Shown here piece by piece: positions 3,369-21,043 of a stretch of DNA of 21,043 nucleotides (position 1 is the first letter of the stretch; each line of letters opens with the position of its first letter). The notes under the pieces were generated by a model. That model made no database searches and had not been told where the DNA came from. It saw nothing but the letters and a program-made list of their open reading frames with translations. Origin of the DNA: a virus (Duplodnaviria > Heunggongvirae > Uroviricota > Caudoviricetes); the IMG/VR virus record IMGVR_UViG_2529292726_000020; one strand, given 5' to 3'. Position numbers and translations under genes: made by a program.

Positions 3369-3679
3369 TGGTCGATATTACCCGAGTACGCCGCGAATCC
3401 CTGCGCTGGAGTCTGCTGGTTGCCCTGAACAAGACCCGCCCTTACACCGCCAGCGAGACGCTGCTGCTGGATGTGTCCCGTGCCATCTACCCGGACACCA
3501 CACCGCTGGAACTGCGCCGCGAACTGGATTATCTGGCTGACCGTAAAATGGTTGAGCTGGAGAAAAAACCTTCTGGTGACTGGTTTGCTGACCTGACCCG
3601 CCTCGGCGTAGACCTGGTGGAATACACCGTGGAATGTGGTCCGGGTATTGCCCGCCCGGAAAAGTACTGGAGTGAATAA
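3368..3679 (+). CDS. Hypothetical phage protein (position of Mu gp26)
   Basis: Track ORF of 103 aa, translationally coupled to both flanking genes. Confidence 0.55.
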   Translation: MVDITRVRRESLRWSLLVALNKTRPYTASETLLLDVSRAIYPDTTPLELRRELDYLADRKMVELEKKPSGDWFADLTRLGVDLVEYTVECGPGIARPEKYWSE

Positions 3680-11322: not shown

Positions 11323-11573
11323 TGAAAGAATACCGCTATTCCGGCCCGGCCAGCGGCGTCACGCTGTCGGACGGAACCGAAATCCTGCTCTGGCCGGGGA
11401 AGACGGTTTCCCTGCCGGAGGAGCATGACTACGTGAAGGTACTGGTGGCGCTGAAACATCTGACGCCGGTACCTGAAGAGACTAAACCCGCCGGCACACC
11501 GGCTGTGCAGTCACCAAAGCGCAGAAGCAGCAGTGACAGCGAAGTGAAAACGGAGGACACCCATGGCAGCTAA
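11322..11573 (+). CDS. Hypothetical small phage protein (position of Mu gp38)
   Basis: ATG at 11322 overlapping the upstream TGA (track lists the GTG at 11319). GAGGAA upstream. Confidence 0.45.
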   Translation: MKEYRYSGPASGVTLSDGTEILLWPGKTVSLPEEHDYVKVLVALKHLTPVPEETKPAGTPAVQSPKRRSSSDSEVKTEDTHGS

Positions 11574-12990
11574 CTATCTGCATGGTCCCGAAACCATTGA
11601 GGTGGAAAACGGTGCCCGCCCGGTTAAAACGGTGAAATCTGCCGTTATTGGCCTGATTGGTACCGCCCCGATGGGGGATGTCAATACGCTGGTACAGTGC
11701 CTGTCTGAGAAAGACGCAGCGGCATTTGGCAGCCAGTTCACCGGCTTTACCATTCCGCAGGCGCTGGATGCGATTTATGACCATGGTGCAGGTACCGTTC
11801 TGGTCATTAACGTCCTCGACCCGGCGAAACATAAAACGGCGATCGAGGATGAGGTGGTTACCTTTGACAAATCGACAGGGCAGGCCAGACTGGCGCATCC
11901 GGTTGTCGCTAATGTGGTGGTGAAAAACAGTGAAGGCAGCACCACCCACACGGCGAACACGGACTACCGTGTTGATGCGCAGGCGGGTGTGCTCACGAAC
12001 CTGGGCAAGGCTATTGAGGCCGGTGGCAGCGTGAAGGTGAGCTATGAGTACGCGGACCCGTCGAAGGTGACTGCGGCGGACATCATCGGCGGGGTGAATA
12101 GCGCCGGAAACCGAACTGGCATGAAGCTGCTTAACGACAGCTTCAACCTGTACGGCTATTTCGCCAAAATTCTGATTGCGCCGGTGTTCTGCACCCAGAA
12201 GAGTGTCGCAGTTGAGCTTATCGCCATGGCAGAGAAGCTGGGCGCGGTAACCTACATTGATGCGCCTGTCGGTACCACCTTTGCACAGGCTCTGGCAGGT
12301 CGTGGCCCGGAAGGCACCATCAACTTCAATACCAGCTCCGACCGCGTCCGTCTGTGCTATCCGCATGTGAAGGTATATGACCCGGTGACAAACACAGAGC
12401 GTCTGGAGCCGCTCAGCCAGCGTGCAGCAGGTCTGCGTGCCAGAGTCGATCTGGACAAGGGCTACTGGTGGTCATCCTCCAATCAGGAGATTCTGGGGAT
12501 CACCGGCGTGGAGCGCCAGCTGTCCGCGATGATTGATGACCCGCAGAGTGAGGTGAACCTGCTTAACGAACAGGGGATCACCACGGTATTCAGCAGTTAC
12601 GGCAGCGGCCTTCGTCTGTGGGGTAACCGGACGGCAGCATGGCCAACGGTCACCCATATGCGTAACTTTGAGAACGTTCGCCGCACCGGTGATGTGATCA
12701 ACGAGTCCATTCGTTATTTCAGCCAGCAGTACATCGACATGCCGATTACTCAGGCGCTGATTGATGCACTGACGGAGTCGGTCAACGCCTACGGTCGCAA
12801 AATGACTGGTGATGGTGCGGTACTGGGCTTCCGTTGCTGGTTTGATCCGGCCCGCAATCCGGAGACGGAGCTGGCCGCCGGGCACCTGTTGCTGAGCTAC
12901 AAATATACGCCACCACCGCCGCTGGAGCGACTGACGTTTGAGACTGAGATCACCTCGGAATACCTGTTAACCCTGAAAGGGGGCAACTGA
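11563..12990 (+). CDS. Tail sheath protein
   Basis: 475 aa, SD GGAGGA, followed directly by the tube gene. Size and position are typical of contractile sheaths. Confidence 0.9.
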   Translation: MAANYLHGPETIEVENGARPVKTVKSAVIGLIGTAPMGDVNTLVQCLSEKDAAAFGSQFTGFTIPQALDAIYDHGAGTVLVINVLDPAKHKTAIEDEVVTFDKSTGQARLAHPVVANVVVKNSEGSTTHTANTDYRVDAQAGVLTNLGKAIEAGGSVKVSYEYADPSKVTAADIIGGVNSAGNRTGMKLLNDSFNLYGYFAKILIAPVFCTQKSVAVELIAMAEKLGAVTYIDAPVGTTFAQALAGRGPEGTINFNTSSDRVRLCYPHVKVYDPVTNTERLEPLSQRAAGLRARVDLDKGYWWSSSNQEILGITGVERQLSAMIDDPQSEVNLLNEQGITTVFSSYGSGLRLWGNRTAAWPTVTHMRNFENVRRTGDVINESIRYFSQQYIDMPITQALIDALTESVNAYGRKMTGDGAVLGFRCWFDPARNPETELAAGHLLLSYKYTPPPPLERLTFETEITSEYLLTLKGGN

Positions 12991-13511
12991 TGTCAAAGAT
13001 TGAGATAAACCGCATCACGAATGCCAACATCTATCTGGATGGTACTAACCTGCTGGGACGGGCTGAGGAAGTTAAACTCCCCGATGTCTCCATGATTATG
13101 CAGGAACACAAGGCACTGGGGATGGTGGGTAAGGTGGAACTCCCGGCTGGTTTTGACAAACTGGAAGGCGAAATCAAATGGAACAGCTTTTACCGCGATG
13201 CGATGCTGTCTGCCGCGAACCCGTACAAGTCGCTGGCGCTGCAGTGTCGCTCCAGCGTCCAGCGCTACAGCTCGCAGGGGCTGATCGACGAAATCCCGCT
13301 GGTCACCTTCCTGACAATTATGTTCAAGAAGAACCCGCTGGGGACGTTTAAACAGCACGAGAACGCCGAGTTCTCCAGTAGCTTCACCTGCACGTATATC
13401 AGACAGGTACTGGATGGTGAAGAGCTGCTGCAACTGGACTATCTGGCCAACATCTTCCGGGTCGGCGGTGTTGATCAACTGACTGACTACCGTATCAATA
13501 TCGGGGGCTGA
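12990..13511 (+). CDS. Tail tube protein
   Basis: 173 aa immediately downstream of the sheath with ATG overlapping its stop. Confidence 0.85.
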   Translation: MSKIEINRITNANIYLDGTNLLGRAEEVKLPDVSMIMQEHKALGMVGKVELPAGFDKLEGEIKWNSFYRDAMLSAANPYKSLALQCRSSVQRYSSQGLIDEIPLVTFLTIMFKKNPLGTFKQHENAEFSSSFTCTYIRQVLDGEELLQLDYLANIFRVGGVDQLTDYRINIGG

Positions 13512-13892: not shown

Positions 13893-14228
13893 ATGTCACA
13901 GACCCCATCCGATACTTTTAAATTGTCTTATCCCTTCACCACTGCTGCAGGCACCAGAATTGAGCTGGTTGAACTGAAACGCCTGACGGTAAAAGACCTG
14001 AAGCAGGTGCGCAAAATCAGCAAAAACCCGGCAGACTGGGACGAACCGCTGATTGCCCGCAGTACTGGTCTTCTCCCGGAAGATCTCGACAATATGGATC
14101 TGGCTGATTACCTGCAGTTACAGAAACGATTTCAGCTCATCACGGGGATGGGTGAGAGCAACCAGGGCGCTGACGCAGGCGCAGGGGCTGCTGGCGAGAT
14201 GGTTCCGGTTTCAGCCGGGGGAGATTGA
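13893..14228 (+). CDS. Tail assembly chaperone (P2 gpE / lambda G analogue)
   Basis: 111 aa with SD AGGAG, directly upstream of the tape measure. Gly/Ala-rich low-complexity C-terminus. An overlapping ORF (14053-14310) has no start of its own. Confidence 0.7.
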   Translation: MSQTPSDTFKLSYPFTTAAGTRIELVELKRLTVKDLKQVRKISKNPADWDEPLIARSTGLLPEDLDNMDLADYLQLQKRFQLITGMGESNQGADAGAGAAGEMVPVSAGGD

Positions 14229-14385: not shown

Positions 14386-17274
14386 ATGTCGGGACAGTTT
14401 TCAGTCGGCGTTGTTATCGGCGGGATGATTGGTAGCACATTCCGTTCTGCAATGAGCGGTACCCGCCGTGCGCTTGATTCCCTGAGCGATACCTCACGCC
14501 GCCTGCAGGAACGTCAGAACGCTTTAACCCGTGCAACAGAACGTTATGGTCAACTGGGTTCTTCCCGGATGCAGCATCTCAACAGCGAGCTGCTGCGGGT
14601 AAGCCGCACCATGGAGCAAATTGAGCGCCAGCAGCGCCGTCTGTCAGCGGCATCCGCTACCAGTGATGCGCTGAAAGCTAACCGCATGGCGCTGTATGGT
14701 CAGGGGATTGAAGCGTATGGCATGGCACAGACTGTTTATCATACGGTTTCCCCTGCCGTTCAGCAGTCCATGTCTTTTCAGGACAAAATGATTGATATGT
14801 CGATCACCGCAAAATATGACAATAAAACGCGGGATGCACTTGCCGGACAGATAAAAGGCTGGGCGCTTAAATACAATCAGTATCAGGATGAGCTGCAGGA
14901 GGCGGTGGGTTCACTCATCAGCGACAATATTGATAATGTGTCAGATATCGGTTTTCTGATGCCGGATATTGCCCGCGCGGCAACGGCAACACGCACGTCT
15001 GCTCAGGACTGGGCAAAAGTGGCCGCAGTCTGGCAAAACTCCCTGAAAGGTGCGGCCAGAGATTTTGGTGCCGTTCAGAATATTATGGCTTATGCCGGTG
15101 ACCAGGGGTCATTTGAAATCCCGGATCAGGTCAAGTGGATGCAGTCCCTGGCCCCAATGATGGCGGGTATTGCCAGTGGAAAAGAGGCTGTTGCTGAAAT
15201 CGGGGCCAGTCTCCAGATAGCAAAAATCGGTGCAGGTTCCACCGACGAAGCAGCCAATAATTTTAAAAACTTTCTTACCAAAATTTTTGCCCGCGATACT
15301 CAGAAACAGTTTGCTGATCTGGGTATTGATTTGCAGGGATCTATTGCGAGTTATAAAGCTGCGGGGATCTCTCCGATTGAAGGGATGTTGAGTGTTATAG
15401 AACGTTACCTCAATGCCAAAAGCCCCGAAGCGCTGGCCGGCTTCAAATCAGCCATGAAAATAAAGAATGATACGGCAAGAGATGAGGCACTTCAGGCTCT
15501 GGCGAAAAACTTTGGTCTGGGCGATATGTTCGCGGATATGCAGGTCATGGCATTTATCCGCCCGATGCTGGCCAACATGGACAGATATCGAGAGATCCGT
15601 GCCGGTGCTCTCAGGGCTGCGGATAACGATTTGCTTGCCAGTGCTTATGATCAGCGGCTGAAATCTCCCCTTGAAGCCACTAAAGCACTTATGGTCAGCA
15701 GTCGCGATCTGGCAATTACGCTGGGCGATCAATTAGCTCCATCTTTTATTTCTCTGACTCAGGAACTGCTTCCACTCATTCAGGGGGCAAAACACTGGGT
15801 AGCGACTCACCCGCAATTTGTCAGTGGGGCTTTTAAGCTCATCAGTGCGCTCCTTGCGATTAAGATAGCGACTGTTGGTCTCAAACTGGGGCTGAATCTC
15901 CTTATTTCCCCCTTTGTAAGTGTCTGGAAAAATGCTGTTTTACTTCGGGCCAACTGGCTTCGTCTGTCGCTCGCACTGGGGCAAGGCGGTAAGCTCCGCT
16001 GCTGGCTGGTTCGCGGAATTATGCTCGCCGGTCGTGCTGTTCTCTGGATTGGACGTGCGCTGATGATGAATCCCATCGGTCTCGTTATCACCGCTGTCGC
16101 GGCAGCAGCTTACCTTATCTACCGCAACTGGTGGGCAGTCAGTGGCTGGTTTAAACAGCGCTGGGCAGACATTCAGGAAGCCTTTAACGGCGGCATTGTG
16201 GGAATTGGTAAGTTGCTGATTAACTGGTCGCCGGCAGGCCTGCTCTATAAAGCCTTTGCGGCTGCGCTGAAATATTTCGGCGTTGCTCTGCCGGCAAAGT
16301 TCACCGACTTCGGTGGCCATCTTATCGACGGTCTGATTAACGGTATCAAAAACAAATGGGGGTCGCTCAAATCCAGTGTAACCGGAATGGGTGACAGCAT
16401 CAGTAGCTGGTTTAAACAGTGCTGGGCTGACATTCAGGAAGCCTTTAACGGCGGTATCGCGGGAACTGGTAAGCTGCTGATTAACTGGTCGCCGGCAGGT
16501 CTGCTCTATAAAGCCTTTGCAGCTGCGCTGAAATATCTTGGTGTTGATCTGCCGGCAAAGTTCACCGACTTCGGTGGCCATCTTGTCGACGGTCTGATTA
16601 ACGGTATCAAAAACAAATGGGAGTCGCTCAAATCCAGTGTAACCGGAATGGGTGACAGCATCAGTGGCTGGTTCAGCGAAAAGCTGGGCATTCATTCGCC
16701 GAGTCGCGTGTTTATGGGCTTTGGTGACAATATCGCGCAGGGGGCCGCCATTGGCCTGCAGCGGACCACTCCGCTTGCAGCTCTGGCCGGGCAGCGAATG
16801 GCCAGTGAACTGCTCCCCAAAATGCCCGTGAGCATTCAGGGGCCAGAAATACGGGATAACACTTCAGGTGTTCGCTTCAGTATGCCGTTGCCCGATATCA
16901 ACGGGTTTATGTCGTCTGCTAAAAATGCGATCGGAGCCGTAATCAATAGTTTGTCTTCCATGCCCGCTATCCCGCTCTCCACCCGGGCATCGATTTTACC
17001 AGGGCAACGTCTGGCAAATGAGATGACACCGGATGTTCCCCGTATCCCCTCGCCTGAAATCATGGCTGCCGGATATTCAGGCCGTGGTGCAGCTGCAACC
17101 GGCGGTGGAACGTCTGGTGGTATCCAGGTCAGCTTTAATCCTCAGTTTTTCCTCAATGGCAGGGAAACCGCAGCGCCTGCCGGGCTGACTGGCGCCCTGA
17201 ATATGAGCCTGCATGAGCTGGAAAAAATGCTGGAGCGTCTGCTGGCTCAGAAACAACGTAAGGAGTACAGCTGA
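14386..17274 (+). CDS. Tail tape measure protein
   Basis: 962 aa with SD GGAGG. N-terminal coiled-coil, central hydrophobic segments, Gly-rich C-terminus. Standard position after the chaperone. Confidence 0.9.
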   Translation: MSGQFSVGVVIGGMIGSTFRSAMSGTRRALDSLSDTSRRLQERQNALTRATERYGQLGSSRMQHLNSELLRVSRTMEQIERQQRRLSAASATSDALKANRMALYGQGIEAYGMAQTVYHTVSPAVQQSMSFQDKMIDMSITAKYDNKTRDALAGQIKGWALKYNQYQDELQEAVGSLISDNIDNVSDIGFLMPDIARAATATRTSAQDWAKVAAVWQNSLKGAARDFGAVQNIMAYAGDQGSFEIPDQVKWMQSLAPMMAGIASGKEAVAEIGASLQIAKIGAGSTDEAANNFKNFLTKIFARDTQKQFADLGIDLQGSIASYKAAGISPIEGMLSVIERYLNAKSPEALAGFKSAMKIKNDTARDEALQALAKNFGLGDMFADMQVMAFIRPMLANMDRYREIRAGALRAADNDLLASAYDQRLKSPLEATKALMVSSRDLAITLGDQLAPSFISLTQELLPLIQGAKHWVATHPQFVSGAFKLISALLAIKIATVGLKLGLNLLISPFVSVWKNAVLLRANWLRLSLALGQGGKLRCWLVRGIMLAGRAVLWIGRALMMNPIGLVITAVAAAAYLIYRNWWAVSGWFKQRWADIQEAFNGGIVGIGKLLINWSPAGLLYKAFAAALKYFGVALPAKFTDFGGHLIDGLINGIKNKWGSLKSSVTGMGDSISSWFKQCWADIQEAFNGGIAGTGKLLINWSPAGLLYKAFAAALKYLGVDLPAKFTDFGGHLVDGLINGIKNKWESLKSSVTGMGDSISGWFSEKLGIHSPSRVFMGFGDNIAQGAAIGLQRTTPLAALAGQRMASELLPKMPVSIQGPEIRDNTSGVRFSMPLPDINGFMSSAKNAIGAVINSLSSMPAIPLSTRASILPGQRLANEMTPDVPRIPSPEIMAAGYSGRGAAATGGGTSGGIQVSFNPQFFLNGRETAAPAGLTGALNMSLHELEKMLERLLAQKQRKEYS
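16147..16668 (+). repeat. In-frame tandem duplication, 2 x 261 bp (2 x 87 aa), inside the tape measure gene
   Basis: Copy 1 16147-16407 (WFKQRWADIQEAFNGG..GMGDSISS) and copy 2 16408-16668 (WFKQCWADIQEAFNGG..GMGDSISG) differ at 8 of 87 residues. The duplicate antisense ORFs 16245-16433 and 16506-16691 are also offset by 261 bp. Confidence 0.9.
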
Positions 17275-17819
17275 TGTTTGCCGTACTGGGTGATATTGAG
17301 TTTGAACTGATTACCTACTGGGACGGCTTCGAGGCCACGTTTGGCGTCGATTATGCGGAGCATGCCCGCATCGAGGGTAAACCCGGCCTGCAGTTCGTCG
17401 GCGACAGGCTGGACGAAATCCAGATAACTCTGGTTTTCCATCAGCATTATTGTGTACCCGATGTGGAGCTGGCGAGAGTGCGAACAGCCATGAAAGCCCA
17501 TCAGGCACTGGCGCTGGTCTTCGGCAACGGTGACTATCGCGGCTGGTTCGTGATTACCGATGTGACCGCAACCAGCGAGCAGACAGACAGCACCGGTAAC
17601 GTGCTGGCTGTCAGTGCCACCGTGTCTCTCCGGGAATACACCGGTGATCCGAAAAATCCTCTGCAACCGCCGGCAATACGCACGAAGTTCCCGGTGCCGG
17701 GGCGGTCTCCGGTGCCATTCCATCACCTTCAGGGGTGGCGCAGTTCATCCGCAACGGCGTCAACTATGCGAAACAGGCGCAGTCTGTACTCCAGACCACT
17801 ATCAGCGCCGTTCGGGTGA
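17274..17819 (+). CDS. Tail protein, P2 gpU-like / N-domain of Mu-type DNA-circulation protein; C-terminal ~55 aa look out of frame
   Basis: N-terminal ~125 aa (MFAVLGDIEFEL..GLQFVGDRLDEIQITLVF..GWFVITDVTAT..VSLREY) fit the gpU-like pattern. The rest is Pro/Arg/Ser-rich and unlike protein sequence. Confidence 0.55.
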   Translation: MFAVLGDIEFELITYWDGFEATFGVDYAEHARIEGKPGLQFVGDRLDEIQITLVFHQHYCVPDVELARVRTAMKAHQALALVFGNGDYRGWFVITDVTATSEQTDSTGNVLAVSATVSLREYTGDPKNPLQPPAIRTKFPVPGRSPVPFHHLQGWRSSSATASTMRNRRSLYSRPLSAPFG

Positions 17820-18157
17820 CACAGAAAATGAAGGATAACCCCGTTGTCGCACTGACCCGTGTGCCGGGGCTGATGAGCGGACTGGGTAATATCTCCGGGG
17901 CTCTGGGGAAAAGTGTTCCGGCGTTTAACGCACTCTCTGAATCCATGCCCGATGCCATCAGTCTGGCCAGAACAGCCAGCGAAGCAGCCACGTATGTACA
18001 GCAGGCACAGTCTGCGCTGAGTGGTGTGGACAAAAGAAATATTGCAGGTGCTCTGGATACCGTTTCCGGGCAGCTTAACGCCGCCGGCACAGCATTCAAC
18101 CGCATGTCTCCGGGATTAAGTGCAATGGCCGCCAGAATACTGACGAGGAGTGTGTGA
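17735..18157 (+). CDS. Tail protein fragment; probable downstream part of a frameshift-split gene
   Basis: 140-aa ORF in the -1 frame relative to 17274-17819. Its GTG has no spaced SD. The frame is open back to 17648. Confidence 0.45.
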   Translation: MAQFIRNGVNYAKQAQSVLQTTISAVRVTQKMKDNPVVALTRVPGLMSGLGNISGALGKSVPAFNALSESMPDAISLARTASEAATYVQQAQSALSGVDKRNIAGALDTVSGQLNAAGTAFNRMSPGLSAMAARILTRSV

Positions 18158-18369
18158 TGTTTCTTGAACATGTTACCCGTGATGGAGAGCGCTGGGATTC
18201 GCTGGCATGGCAGTACTACGGTGACCCGCTGGGCTATCCCCGGATTATTGCCGCCAATCCGCACGTGGCCATCACGCCGGTGCTGCCCTCCGGGCTGTTG
18301 TTACTGATCCCGGTGATTGAGACTGAAGAAGCCCGTACAGAAGAGGATATTGCCCCATGGCTGAGATAA
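18157..18369 (+). CDS. Tail protein X-like (LysM-like domain, P2 gpX family)
   Basis: ATG at 18157 overlapping the upstream TGA, SD GAGGAG. Sequence ..WDSLAWQYYGDPLGYPRIIAANPHV.. fits the gpX pattern. Confidence 0.65.
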   Translation: MFLEHVTRDGERWDSLAWQYYGDPLGYPRIIAANPHVAITPVLPSGLLLLIPVIETEEARTEEDIAPWLR

Positions 18370-19511
18370 ACAGCACTGCGCAAGTCACATCAGCGTTAAC
18401 CGGCGTCAGCGATGTGCTGACATCGGTGTTCACTCTGTGGTATCTGCAGAAAAACATCACCTCTGATATCGCGCCTTATGTCACCCGTGTGACCTGGAGC
18501 GATAACATCAAAAATGAGTCCGATACCATTGAGGTGGAGCTGGACGACACCGATGGCCGCTGGCTGGATAAGTGGTATCCGGGCAAGGGTGACACGCTGA
18601 CGCTGAAAATGGGCTATCAGGGCGAGAAGCTGCTGTCCTGCGGTACGTTCTCTATAGACGAGATCGAAGTGAGTTCGCCCGCTTCCGTTGTTTCTATCCG
18701 TGGGGTGGCCACCTCGGTTAACAGTGCCCTGCGGACTAAATCCAGTCGTGGTTTTGAGAACACCACGCTGGCAGCTGTTGCGGGGCGGATTGCCAGAAAG
18801 CACCGACTGAAACTGGTGGGCAGCATTGAGTCCATCAGAATCGACCGGGTGACCCAGTATGCTGAAACCGACGTGGGTTTTCTGCGCCGGCTGGCCAGCG
18901 AGTATGGTTATGCAGTGAAAGTGGTCAGTGACCAGCTGATTTTTTCTCATCTGGCCACACTGCGCAGTCAGGAGACGGTCAGGCAGTTAAAACCGCAGGA
19001 TGTGGCCCGCTTTTCCCTGCGTGACACCATCAACCGGGTCTATAAATCTGCAAAGGTAAAACACCAGAAAAGCAGCAGTAAAAAACTGATCGTCCACGAA
19101 GCTGATGGTGGTACCCGTGAAAGCGACAAAAAGCTCAAAGGTGGTAAGGTTACCAGCGCTGACTCACTTAAAGTTAACAGCCGCGTCAGCGACCCGGACA
19201 GTGCCCGGATTAAAGCGGATTCAGCACTGGCCAGACATAACGAATACCAGCAGAACGGCTCCCTGACGCTGACGGGAACACCTCAACTGACAGCAGGCAA
19301 CAAAATTGAACTGGTGGGTTTTGGGCAGTTATCCGGGCCATGGCTCATAACCACTGCCCGCCATGCGTTTGACCGTAACAGCGGCTACACCACAGAGCTG
19401 GAAGTGGCACGGGGGCCAGTCACAAGAGGGAAAAAACAAAAAACTCAGAAACTCACGGTTTATCACCCGGATGGCAGTACATCGACGGTGATTAAGGAGA
19501 AGAAAAAATGA
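18357..19511 (+). CDS. Baseplate hub protein (P2 gpD / Mu gp44-like, late control D family)
   Basis: 384 aa in the expected position after gpX-like and before the spike. Confidence 0.8.
   Translation: MAEINSTAQVTSALTGVSDVLTSVFTLWYLQKNITSDIAPYVTRVTWSDNIKNESDTIEVELDDTDGRWLDKWYPGKGDTLTLKMGYQGEKLLSCGTFSIDEIEVSSPASVVSIRGVATSVNSALRTKSSRGFENTTLAAVAGRIARKHRLKLVGSIESIRIDRVTQYAETDVGFLRRLASEYGYAVKVVSDQLIFSHLATLRSQETVRQLKPQDVARFSLRDTINRVYKSAKVKHQKSSSKKLIVHEADGGTRESDKKLKGGKVTSADSLKVNSRVSDPDSARIKADSALARHNEYQQNGSLTLTGTPQLTAGNKIELVGFGQLSGPWLITTARHAFDRNSGYTTELEVARGPVTRGKKQKTQKLTVYHPDGSTSTVIKEKKK

Positions 19512-20506: not shown

Positions 20507-21043
<537 letters not shown>

Follow-up and report, generated by a model that had tools for sequence, protein, structure and literature searches.

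The role of the tape measure protein (TMP) as a ruler in phage tails, and the effect of in-frame duplications in it on tail length, are textbook knowledge that comes mainly from engineered mutants. Here, the TMP gene of an Escherichia coli prophage was analysed on a stretch of 21,043 nucleotides (nt) (IMG/VR record IMGVR_UViG_2529292726_000020, Caudoviricetes; hereafter the window), which is the entire 21-kb contig, bounded by insertion sequences (IS), of the draft genome of E. coli 2875150. The gene carries a tandem in-frame duplication of a module of 87 amino acids (aa), which is present in one, two or three copies among the alleles of E. coli prophages and which would be predicted to change tail length in equal steps.

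For lambda gpH (Katsura & Hendrix 1984) and T4 gp29 (Abuladze et al. 1994), engineered deletions and duplications scale tail length, both cited in PMC13585406; with T4, the ruler principle extends to contractile tails. Like these two, the window TMP would be a ruler-type protein by analogy; the place in the lumen of the tail tube is known for lambda and T4 and presumed here. However, no sequence relationship to the window TMP was detectable beyond general TMP features, and whereas the length changes in lambda and T4 were engineered, the variants described here arose naturally and segregate as alleles among E. coli prophages.

In the siphophage TP901-1, deletions and a duplication in the TMP, including deletions within a hydrophobic region, changed tail length by ~0.145-0.15 nm per residue (PMC5099701), and the authors suggested that the repeats ease natural duplication and deletion (Mahony et al. 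2016, PMC5099701); TP901-1 TMP work by Pedersen et al. (2000) is summarised in the same paper. The TMPs of TP901-1 and of the window belong to the same core family (PF10145; TIGR01760, 'TP901 family') and both have a repeat region and hydrophobic regions. However, the repeats of TP901-1 are short (11 or 18 aa) and number 29, whereas the window TMP, which is of myophage type, has one long 87-aa module in one to three copies. Repeats of an 11-aa unit were also described in the TMPs of a subset of phages, where they evolve by duplication and loss of units (Belcaid, Bergeron & Poisson 2011, PMC3271669). There, as here, these events were reconstructed from paralogous and orthologous units across strains, but the unit is only 11 aa long and present in many copies, whereas the hybrid units of the 87-aa module directly show unequal crossing-over. 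An aromatic periodicity of 11 residues, of the kind seen in these systems, was sought in the 87-aa unit and was absent.

The one close relative among deposited phage genomes is Escherichia phage PhiKM (PQ738613, genus Bcepmuvirus), with 97.5% nucleotide identity over the TMP gene and the same gene order (sheath, tube, hypothetical, gpE-like chaperone, TMP, gpU, gpX, gpD). The two differ in that PhiKM has a sequencing gap in the repeat, whereas in the window the repeat is resolved but the prophage is disrupted by IS elements. In the PhiKM record (PQ738613.1, L003), a run of N lies inside the 261-bp repeat at ~3415-3515, and the TMP is annotated as two fragments, 'disrupted by sequencing gap'. 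For BcepMu-like phages of E. coli, literature searches gave nothing specific on the dimensions of the tail or on repeats in the TMP.

The repeat-bearing gene had been taken for a tape measure gene in a first-pass annotation made from the letters of the window, and this was borne out by its matches to PF10145 (E 1.9e-20 at aa 159-340; 74 bits, cut-off 33.2), TIGR01760 (E 4e-16; 59 bits, cut-off 28.8) and phrog_28, 'tail length tape measure protein' (E 1.7e-135), and by its place in a contractile-tail module (Table 1). The protein is identical to ENB17761.1/WP_001404337.1 of E. coli 2875150, and its RefSeq relatives carry the annotation 'phage tail tape measure protein'.

A single array was detected in the window by Tandem Repeats Finder (16139-16673; period 261, 2.0 copies, 93% matches, no indels, score 958). 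It is made of two consecutive, near-identical units of 87 codons, U1 and U2, exactly where the first-pass annotation had placed them. Both are in phase with the TMP open reading frame (ORF) and lie head to tail, in register and without indels. They differ at 16 of 261 nt and at 8 of 87 aa, with seven codon differences that are synonymous only and eight that change the amino acid. The divergence of about 9% reported earlier is correct for the protein (9.2%), but at the nucleotide level it is 6.1%. The agreement at 245 of 261 nt is far above chance. Synonymous divergence (dS) between the units is 0.15, and the ratio of nonsynonymous to synonymous divergence (dN/dS) of 0.28 in the plus frame indicates that both are under purifying selection; between orthologous units dN/dS is lower, at 0.11-0.12.

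As a 13-nt direct repeat, TCAGTGGCTGGTT, flanks the unit, the array reaches 8 nt to the left of 16147 and 5 nt to the right of 16668. One-unit alleles have the same boundary repeat on either side of their unit, and the E. coli outgroup L008 has it in an imperfect form. It had been proposed that a third unit begins after U2 and diverges after WF. Past U2, TGGTT (Trp-Phe) does recur before the sequence diverges, but this WF belongs to the boundary repeat, and no third copy begins with it. A half-unit that follows further downstream is also present in distant relatives, and its sequence indicates that it is ancient and degenerate. Two candidate recombination signals were considered: Chi sites (GCTGGTGG), as a possible driver, were sought across the window and none was found, and the motif GGCTGGTT was rejected, as it occurs at the indel boundaries 16004, 16144 and 16666 but elsewhere too, and is treated as simple microhomology. 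An antisense ORF (15940..16695, minus strand, 251 aa), which spans the whole repeat, was rejected as a gene because the dN/dS of 0.28 in the plus frame and homology favour the plus-strand gene; it is probably a by-product of composition and of a repeat length divisible by three.

Among 5,426 complete E. coli genomes, 636 have a match to the TMP gene. Copy number was assigned in 60 of the 636, evenly spread, by BLAST signatures, each class being verified on two genomes. Two units were present in 41 genomes (68%), three in 12 (20%), one recombinant unit in 2 (3%) and the divergent single-unit type (L008) in 4 (7%), with one partial match (2%). Strains whose closed genomes represent the alleles are DLI.5a (NZ_CP103972) and AVS0947 (NZ_CP124460) for one unit, IAI39 (NC_011750) and CE10 (NC_017646) for two, and LC-1302-2020 (NZ_CP091756) and AVS0575 (NZ_CP124483) for three. 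In the 120 closest protein clusters, TMPs of 874/896 aa have one unit, those of 961/962/983 aa two and those of 1070 aa three; the offsets of 21-22 aa within these classes are explained by a second indel. The TMP ORF was intact in all 11 in-group loci examined, which cover all three copy-number classes. Further length variants include P0037 (995 aa), with an extra 12-aa slippage mini-duplication, GDSISSWFKQCW, at the U1/U2 junction, and P0018 (1084 aa), with a duplication of ~101 aa over the second hydrophobic segment upstream of the units. One- and three-copy alleles therefore exist among related prophages, and they bear signatures of recombination, in line with the earlier suggestion that the repeats are recombination substrates.

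The hybrid units show the polarity expected of unequal crossing-over, with U1 heads and U2 tails in losses (L007, L009) and U2 heads and U1 tails in gains (L005, L006). In the single unit of L007, U1-derived states run to nt 92, with U2-derived ones from nt 113 on; L009 changes from U1 to U2 between nt 12 and 92. L005 and L006, with three units, have U2 sequence as far as nt 58 of the middle unit and U1 sequence from nt 66 on, which makes this unit the reciprocal product expected of such an exchange. The three-unit alleles L010 and L011 are instead U1-U1-U2, with the first two units 1-2 nt apart. Other one-unit clusters carry the signatures RATFAIEG, RATFAVEG and RVTLDVEG at the eight diagnostic residues that separate U1 from U2, and the one-unit protein signatures imply at least four crossover intervals. 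By the identity of their flanks to the window (99.5-99.7% or 97.5-97.7%), the alleles fall into two sublineages, and one-, two- and three-unit alleles occur in each of them; therefore, at least two gains and at least two losses were independent. As the crossover points differ and both sublineages are affected, unequal recombination must have been recurrent. The events that produced the hybrids of L005 and L007 are recent, since these units carry 0 and 1 private substitutions, respectively. Patches of exchanged states point to gene conversion as well: the U1 head of L004 is U2-like, including two U2-derived states, and unit 3 of L006 is partly converted.

Two related prophages of this family lie at ~0.80 Mb and 4.81 Mb in the closed genome of E. 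coli 510016 (NZ_CP025851.1), where the TMP query has five matches. As the two prophages are co-resident, TMP repeats could recombine between them.

The ancestral state was examined in outgroups. The E. coli outgroup L008 has an 821-aa TMP with one unit, which is 29 nt from U1 and 28 nt from U2, compared with 16 nt between U1 and U2; this unit shows interleaved U1 and U2 states, and its dS is 0.41 against 0.15 for U1-U2. In other genera, which include Trabulsiella, Mixta, Pantoea, Erwinia, Photorhabdus, Xenorhabdus, Burkholderia and Chromobacterium, 51 of 52 loci have one unit and the remaining one has none. At the eight diagnostic residues the outgroup consensus is RVILDIEG, whereas U1 reads RVIFAIGS and U2 CATLDVEG, which gives four derived changes each (L43F, D46A, E71G and G86S in U1; R4C, V17A, I19T and I59V in U2; 0-based unit positions). 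The outgroups are single-unit and lie at equal distance from U1 and U2, which makes the duplication specific to this lineage. It is younger than the split from the L008 type, given the dS of 0.15 against 0.41, and predates the diversification of the E. coli alleles, given units 6.1% apart against at most 2.5% between allele flanks. The single-copy ancestor assumed in the first-pass annotation is supported by these outgroups, but the hybrid sequence of those single-unit alleles of this E. coli lineage that were sequenced marks them as secondary recombinational losses and not as that ancestor.

The sole two-unit locus in the scan of other genera was a low-coverage contig, L013, filed under Arthrobacter and 93% identical to the window. 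Two short, low-coverage contigs, L013 and L024, come from the assemblies of Arthrobacter sp. GMC3 and Y81; L024 is 562 bp long and contains part of the same TMP. Both are probably E. coli (enterobacterial) contamination.

In the account that we consider probable as a whole, namely a lineage-specific in-frame duplication of 87 TMP residues followed by unequal recombination, with a ruler effect, the ancestral TMP carried one module with (V/I)-S-G-W-F on both sides. In this lineage the motif takes the form of the 13-nt direct repeat at a spacing of 261 bp, and slipped-strand or illegitimate recombination between the two 13-nt copies probably duplicated the module exactly in register. The copies then diverged by ~6% at the nucleotide level, with the frame intact, and had done so by the time the E. 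coli alleles of today branched out. From then on, unequal homologous recombination and gene conversion have acted on the 261-bp copies, with repeated products: one-unit hybrids with a U1 head and a U2 tail, and three-unit alleles with either a U2-head/U1-tail middle unit or the order U1-U1-U2. If the TMP acts as a ruler in the growing tail tube, as in other phages, each module gained or lost should add or remove ~13 nm of tail, the length predicted from 87 residues. Contractile tails rise ~4 nm per disc, therefore a unit would correspond to roughly three sheath/tube discs. The predicted ruler lengths are ~131-134, 144-147 and 160 nm for one, two and three units.

Several points weigh against this account. 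The slippage origin at the 13-nt repeat is a proposal drawn from the boundaries of the units. The value of 0.15 nm per residue is assumed for a Gly-rich module, whose model is mostly helical at a predicted local distance difference test score (pLDDT) of 45, and the tail lengths of the alleles are predicted from other phages, with no sequence relative of the TMP in the PDB. The units adjoin transmembrane-like segments, and their number may affect DNA injection instead of, or besides, tail length. With IS100 inserted in a baseplate gene and the gpU-like gene frameshifted, this copy of the prophage is probably unable to make tails. The allele frequencies are those of BLAST-signature classes, each verified on two genomes, and the two units of the draft contig itself could be a collapse of three.

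That the two copies arose in assembly, by expansion of one unit or collapse of three, is made conceivable by the draft contig with its IS boundaries, by the sequencing gap of PhiKM exactly within the repeat, and by three-unit alleles that reuse U1 and U2 sequence and could collapse in short-read assemblies. However, the two-unit allele, with identical or near-identical U1 and U2 and the same diagnostic substitutions, is present in many closed E. coli chromosomes, and that of E. coli 510016 combines the two-unit TMP with the IS100/baseplate junction of the window (100% over 444 nt); the 16 fixed differences between U1 and U2 also allow unambiguous placement of reads. Since closed genomes carry it, one of them with this very junction, the two-unit allele is judged to be real and established, as had been argued from its divergence, and an artefact is very unlikely. 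An old two-domain architecture, with both segments ancient and ubiquitous in the family, is still more improbable and already refuted for this lineage. Old duplications of the module do exist: among representatives of distant relatives at 50% identity (n=150), 13 have two units, two have three and one has four. Fifteen of these have units 22-68% identical to each other, which indicates that the module was duplicated independently elsewhere in the family, and the sixteenth is an E. coli-type fragment with units 94% identical. The degenerate half-unit behind U2 could be read in the same way. On the other side, 118 of the 150 have one unit and 16 none, almost all loci of other genera have one, the 16 nt that separate U1 from U2 are fewer than the 28-29 nt to the nearest single-unit outgroup, and both units depart from the outgroup consensus at four residues. 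A plausible reason for the repeated duplication is the conserved (V/I)-S-G-W-F motif shared by both ends of the unit; its WF is kept at the unit boundary in 52 of 62 single-unit distant relatives.

The preferred account, lineage-specific duplication with recurrent unequal recombination, also has to be set against readings that leave the events as they are and change their meaning. If the prophages were defective remnants, copy-number change could be selectively irrelevant noise in an unused gene; this copy has IS1 at one end, a baseplate gene interrupted by IS100 and a frameshift in the gpU-like gene, and dN/dS between its units exceeds that of orthologous units. Such neutral decay is unlikely, as all 11 in-group ORFs examined are intact across the three copy-number classes, dN/dS is well under 1, frame and unit register are kept in every event, a close relative (PhiKM) was deposited as a phage, and whole prophages with 95-98% coverage are present in ~270 complete genomes. 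The module could also lie outside the length ruler, in a membrane-active or hub-associated part of the TMP where its number alters channel formation or envelope penetration. The position of the units directly downstream of the two transmembrane-like segments, their Gly-rich (13 of 87 residues) and moderately hydrophobic composition, the low confidence of the structure model and the activity of multifunctional TMPs in genome delivery (PMC5099701) speak for this, whereas the predominantly helical model and the total length, which varies accordingly as module number goes from one to four in distant relatives, speak for a ruler; we consider a role outside it rather unlikely. A further reading goes beyond the preferred account and is doubtful in our view: the module as a recombination-driven dial of tail length, with frequent crossovers between 261-bp units, possibly also between co-resident related prophages, and selection that keeps several length classes in a widespread E. 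coli prophage. The selecting factor would be, for example, the thickness of the host capsule or O-antigen. The data are compatible with it because there were at least four independent events, the newest hybrids have 0-1 private substitutions and ~20% of the sampled genomes have three units.

Table 1. Coordinates of the TMP repeat, the tail genes and the contig ends in the window
Feature	Position (nt)	Strand	Remarks
IS1 end at left contig end	1-405		99% identical to IS1 copies in P1, SfIV and others
Tail sheath gene	11563-12990	+	PF04984/PF17482
Tail tube gene	12990-13511	+	PF04985
Tail assembly chaperone (gpE-like) gene	13893..14228	+	directly upstream of TMP; PF10109 E 5.5e-21
TMP gene	14386..17274	+	962 aa + stop; PF10145, TIGR01760, phrog_28 matches
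Two hydrophobic, transmembrane-like segments	15814..16122	+	aa 477-513 and 551-579; Kyte-Doolittle 19-aa window means 1.8-1.9
Second TMP indel hotspot	16000..16011	+	extra TGC codon (Cys539); site where 63-bp (21-aa) segment is absent
Boundary direct repeat (13 nt), left copy	16139..16151	+	TCAGTGGCTGGTT; encodes ..SGWF
Repeat unit 1 (U1)	16147..16407	+	aa 588-674 of TMP
Internal U1/U2 junction	16400..16412	+	TCAGTAGCTGGTT; 1 mismatch to boundary repeat
Repeat unit 2 (U2)	16408..16668	+	aa 675-761 of TMP
Boundary direct repeat (13 nt), right copy	16661..16673	+	TCAGTGGCTGGTT; includes WF after U2
Degenerate half-unit	16681..16767	+	aa 766-794, KLGIHSPSRVFMGFGDNIAQGAAIGLQRT; positions 42-69 of unit hidden Markov model, E 1.6e-4
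gpU-like tail protein gene	17274..18157	+	split into two ORFs; PF06995
gpD-like gene	18357-19511		module order downstream of TMP
IS100kyp (IS21-family, istB) within baseplate gene	~20680-21043		right contig end

The products of the tail sheath and tail tube genes polymerise around the TMP. In the window, these genes are preceded by homologues of a Mu-type portal, gp27, gp36 and gp37, and the TMP gene is followed by gpU-, gpD-, spike- and gp25-like genes; the order sheath-tube-chaperone-TMP-gpU-gpD is also found in annotated relatives. The gene content and the similarity to PhiKM indicate that the host element is a BcepMu-like, P2-type contractile-tailed prophage of E. coli. Within the TMP, the transmembrane-like segments lie directly upstream of U1. 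At the second indel hotspot, the TGC codon of Cys539 is absent from the relatives compared, and most relatives (896/983/1070-aa alleles) have a 63-bp segment (21 aa, LVTGFS...), which exists as two sequence variants and is flanked there by GGCTGGT microhomology. A single-sequence AlphaFold2 model of aa 476-822 was mostly helical and of low confidence (pLDDT 45; predicted template modelling score 0.20). A structural relative of the TMP was sought by a sequence search of all PDB chains, which returned nothing at E <= 1.

At the left end of the contig, the stretch 406-722 that follows the IS1 end has no counterpart in PhiKM, to which homology begins at 723; the contig therefore lacks the early region of the prophage, which may be interrupted. 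In the gpU-like gene, one nucleotide is deleted after 17684, as aligned to L002, which leaves ORFs 17274-17819 and 17735-18157 in place of the intact 885 nt of relatives. The deletion reflects either genuine inactivation by a frameshift or an error in the draft sequence.

In RefSeq/PGAP, the three-unit TMPs of L005 (NZ_CP059279.1, 1501-4713) and L011 (NZ_CP014495.1, 1501-4713) are labelled as incomplete pseudogenes. Their 3213-nt ORFs are intact, without an internal stop, and the label appears to be an annotation artefact of the extra repeat unit. The repeat breaks assemblies and misleads gene annotation; therefore, calls of prophage intactness at this locus are unreliable.

Tape measure genes are already known to evolve by tandem duplication and loss (PMC3271669, PMC5099701, PMC13585406), and this locus is a clear natural example of it, with no new mechanism. 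It provides a natural series of one, two and three modules of equal length in genes that are otherwise 97.5-99.7% identical, in a contractile tail of the Mu/P2 type, and the series sits in sequenced, culturable E. coli strains. Therefore, it could be used to calibrate the nanometres of tail per residue and the rounding to whole sheath/tube discs in such tails, where these data are scarce. If the module does act as a recombination-driven dial, it would represent a natural, quantised polymorphism of tail length in a contractile-tailed phage.

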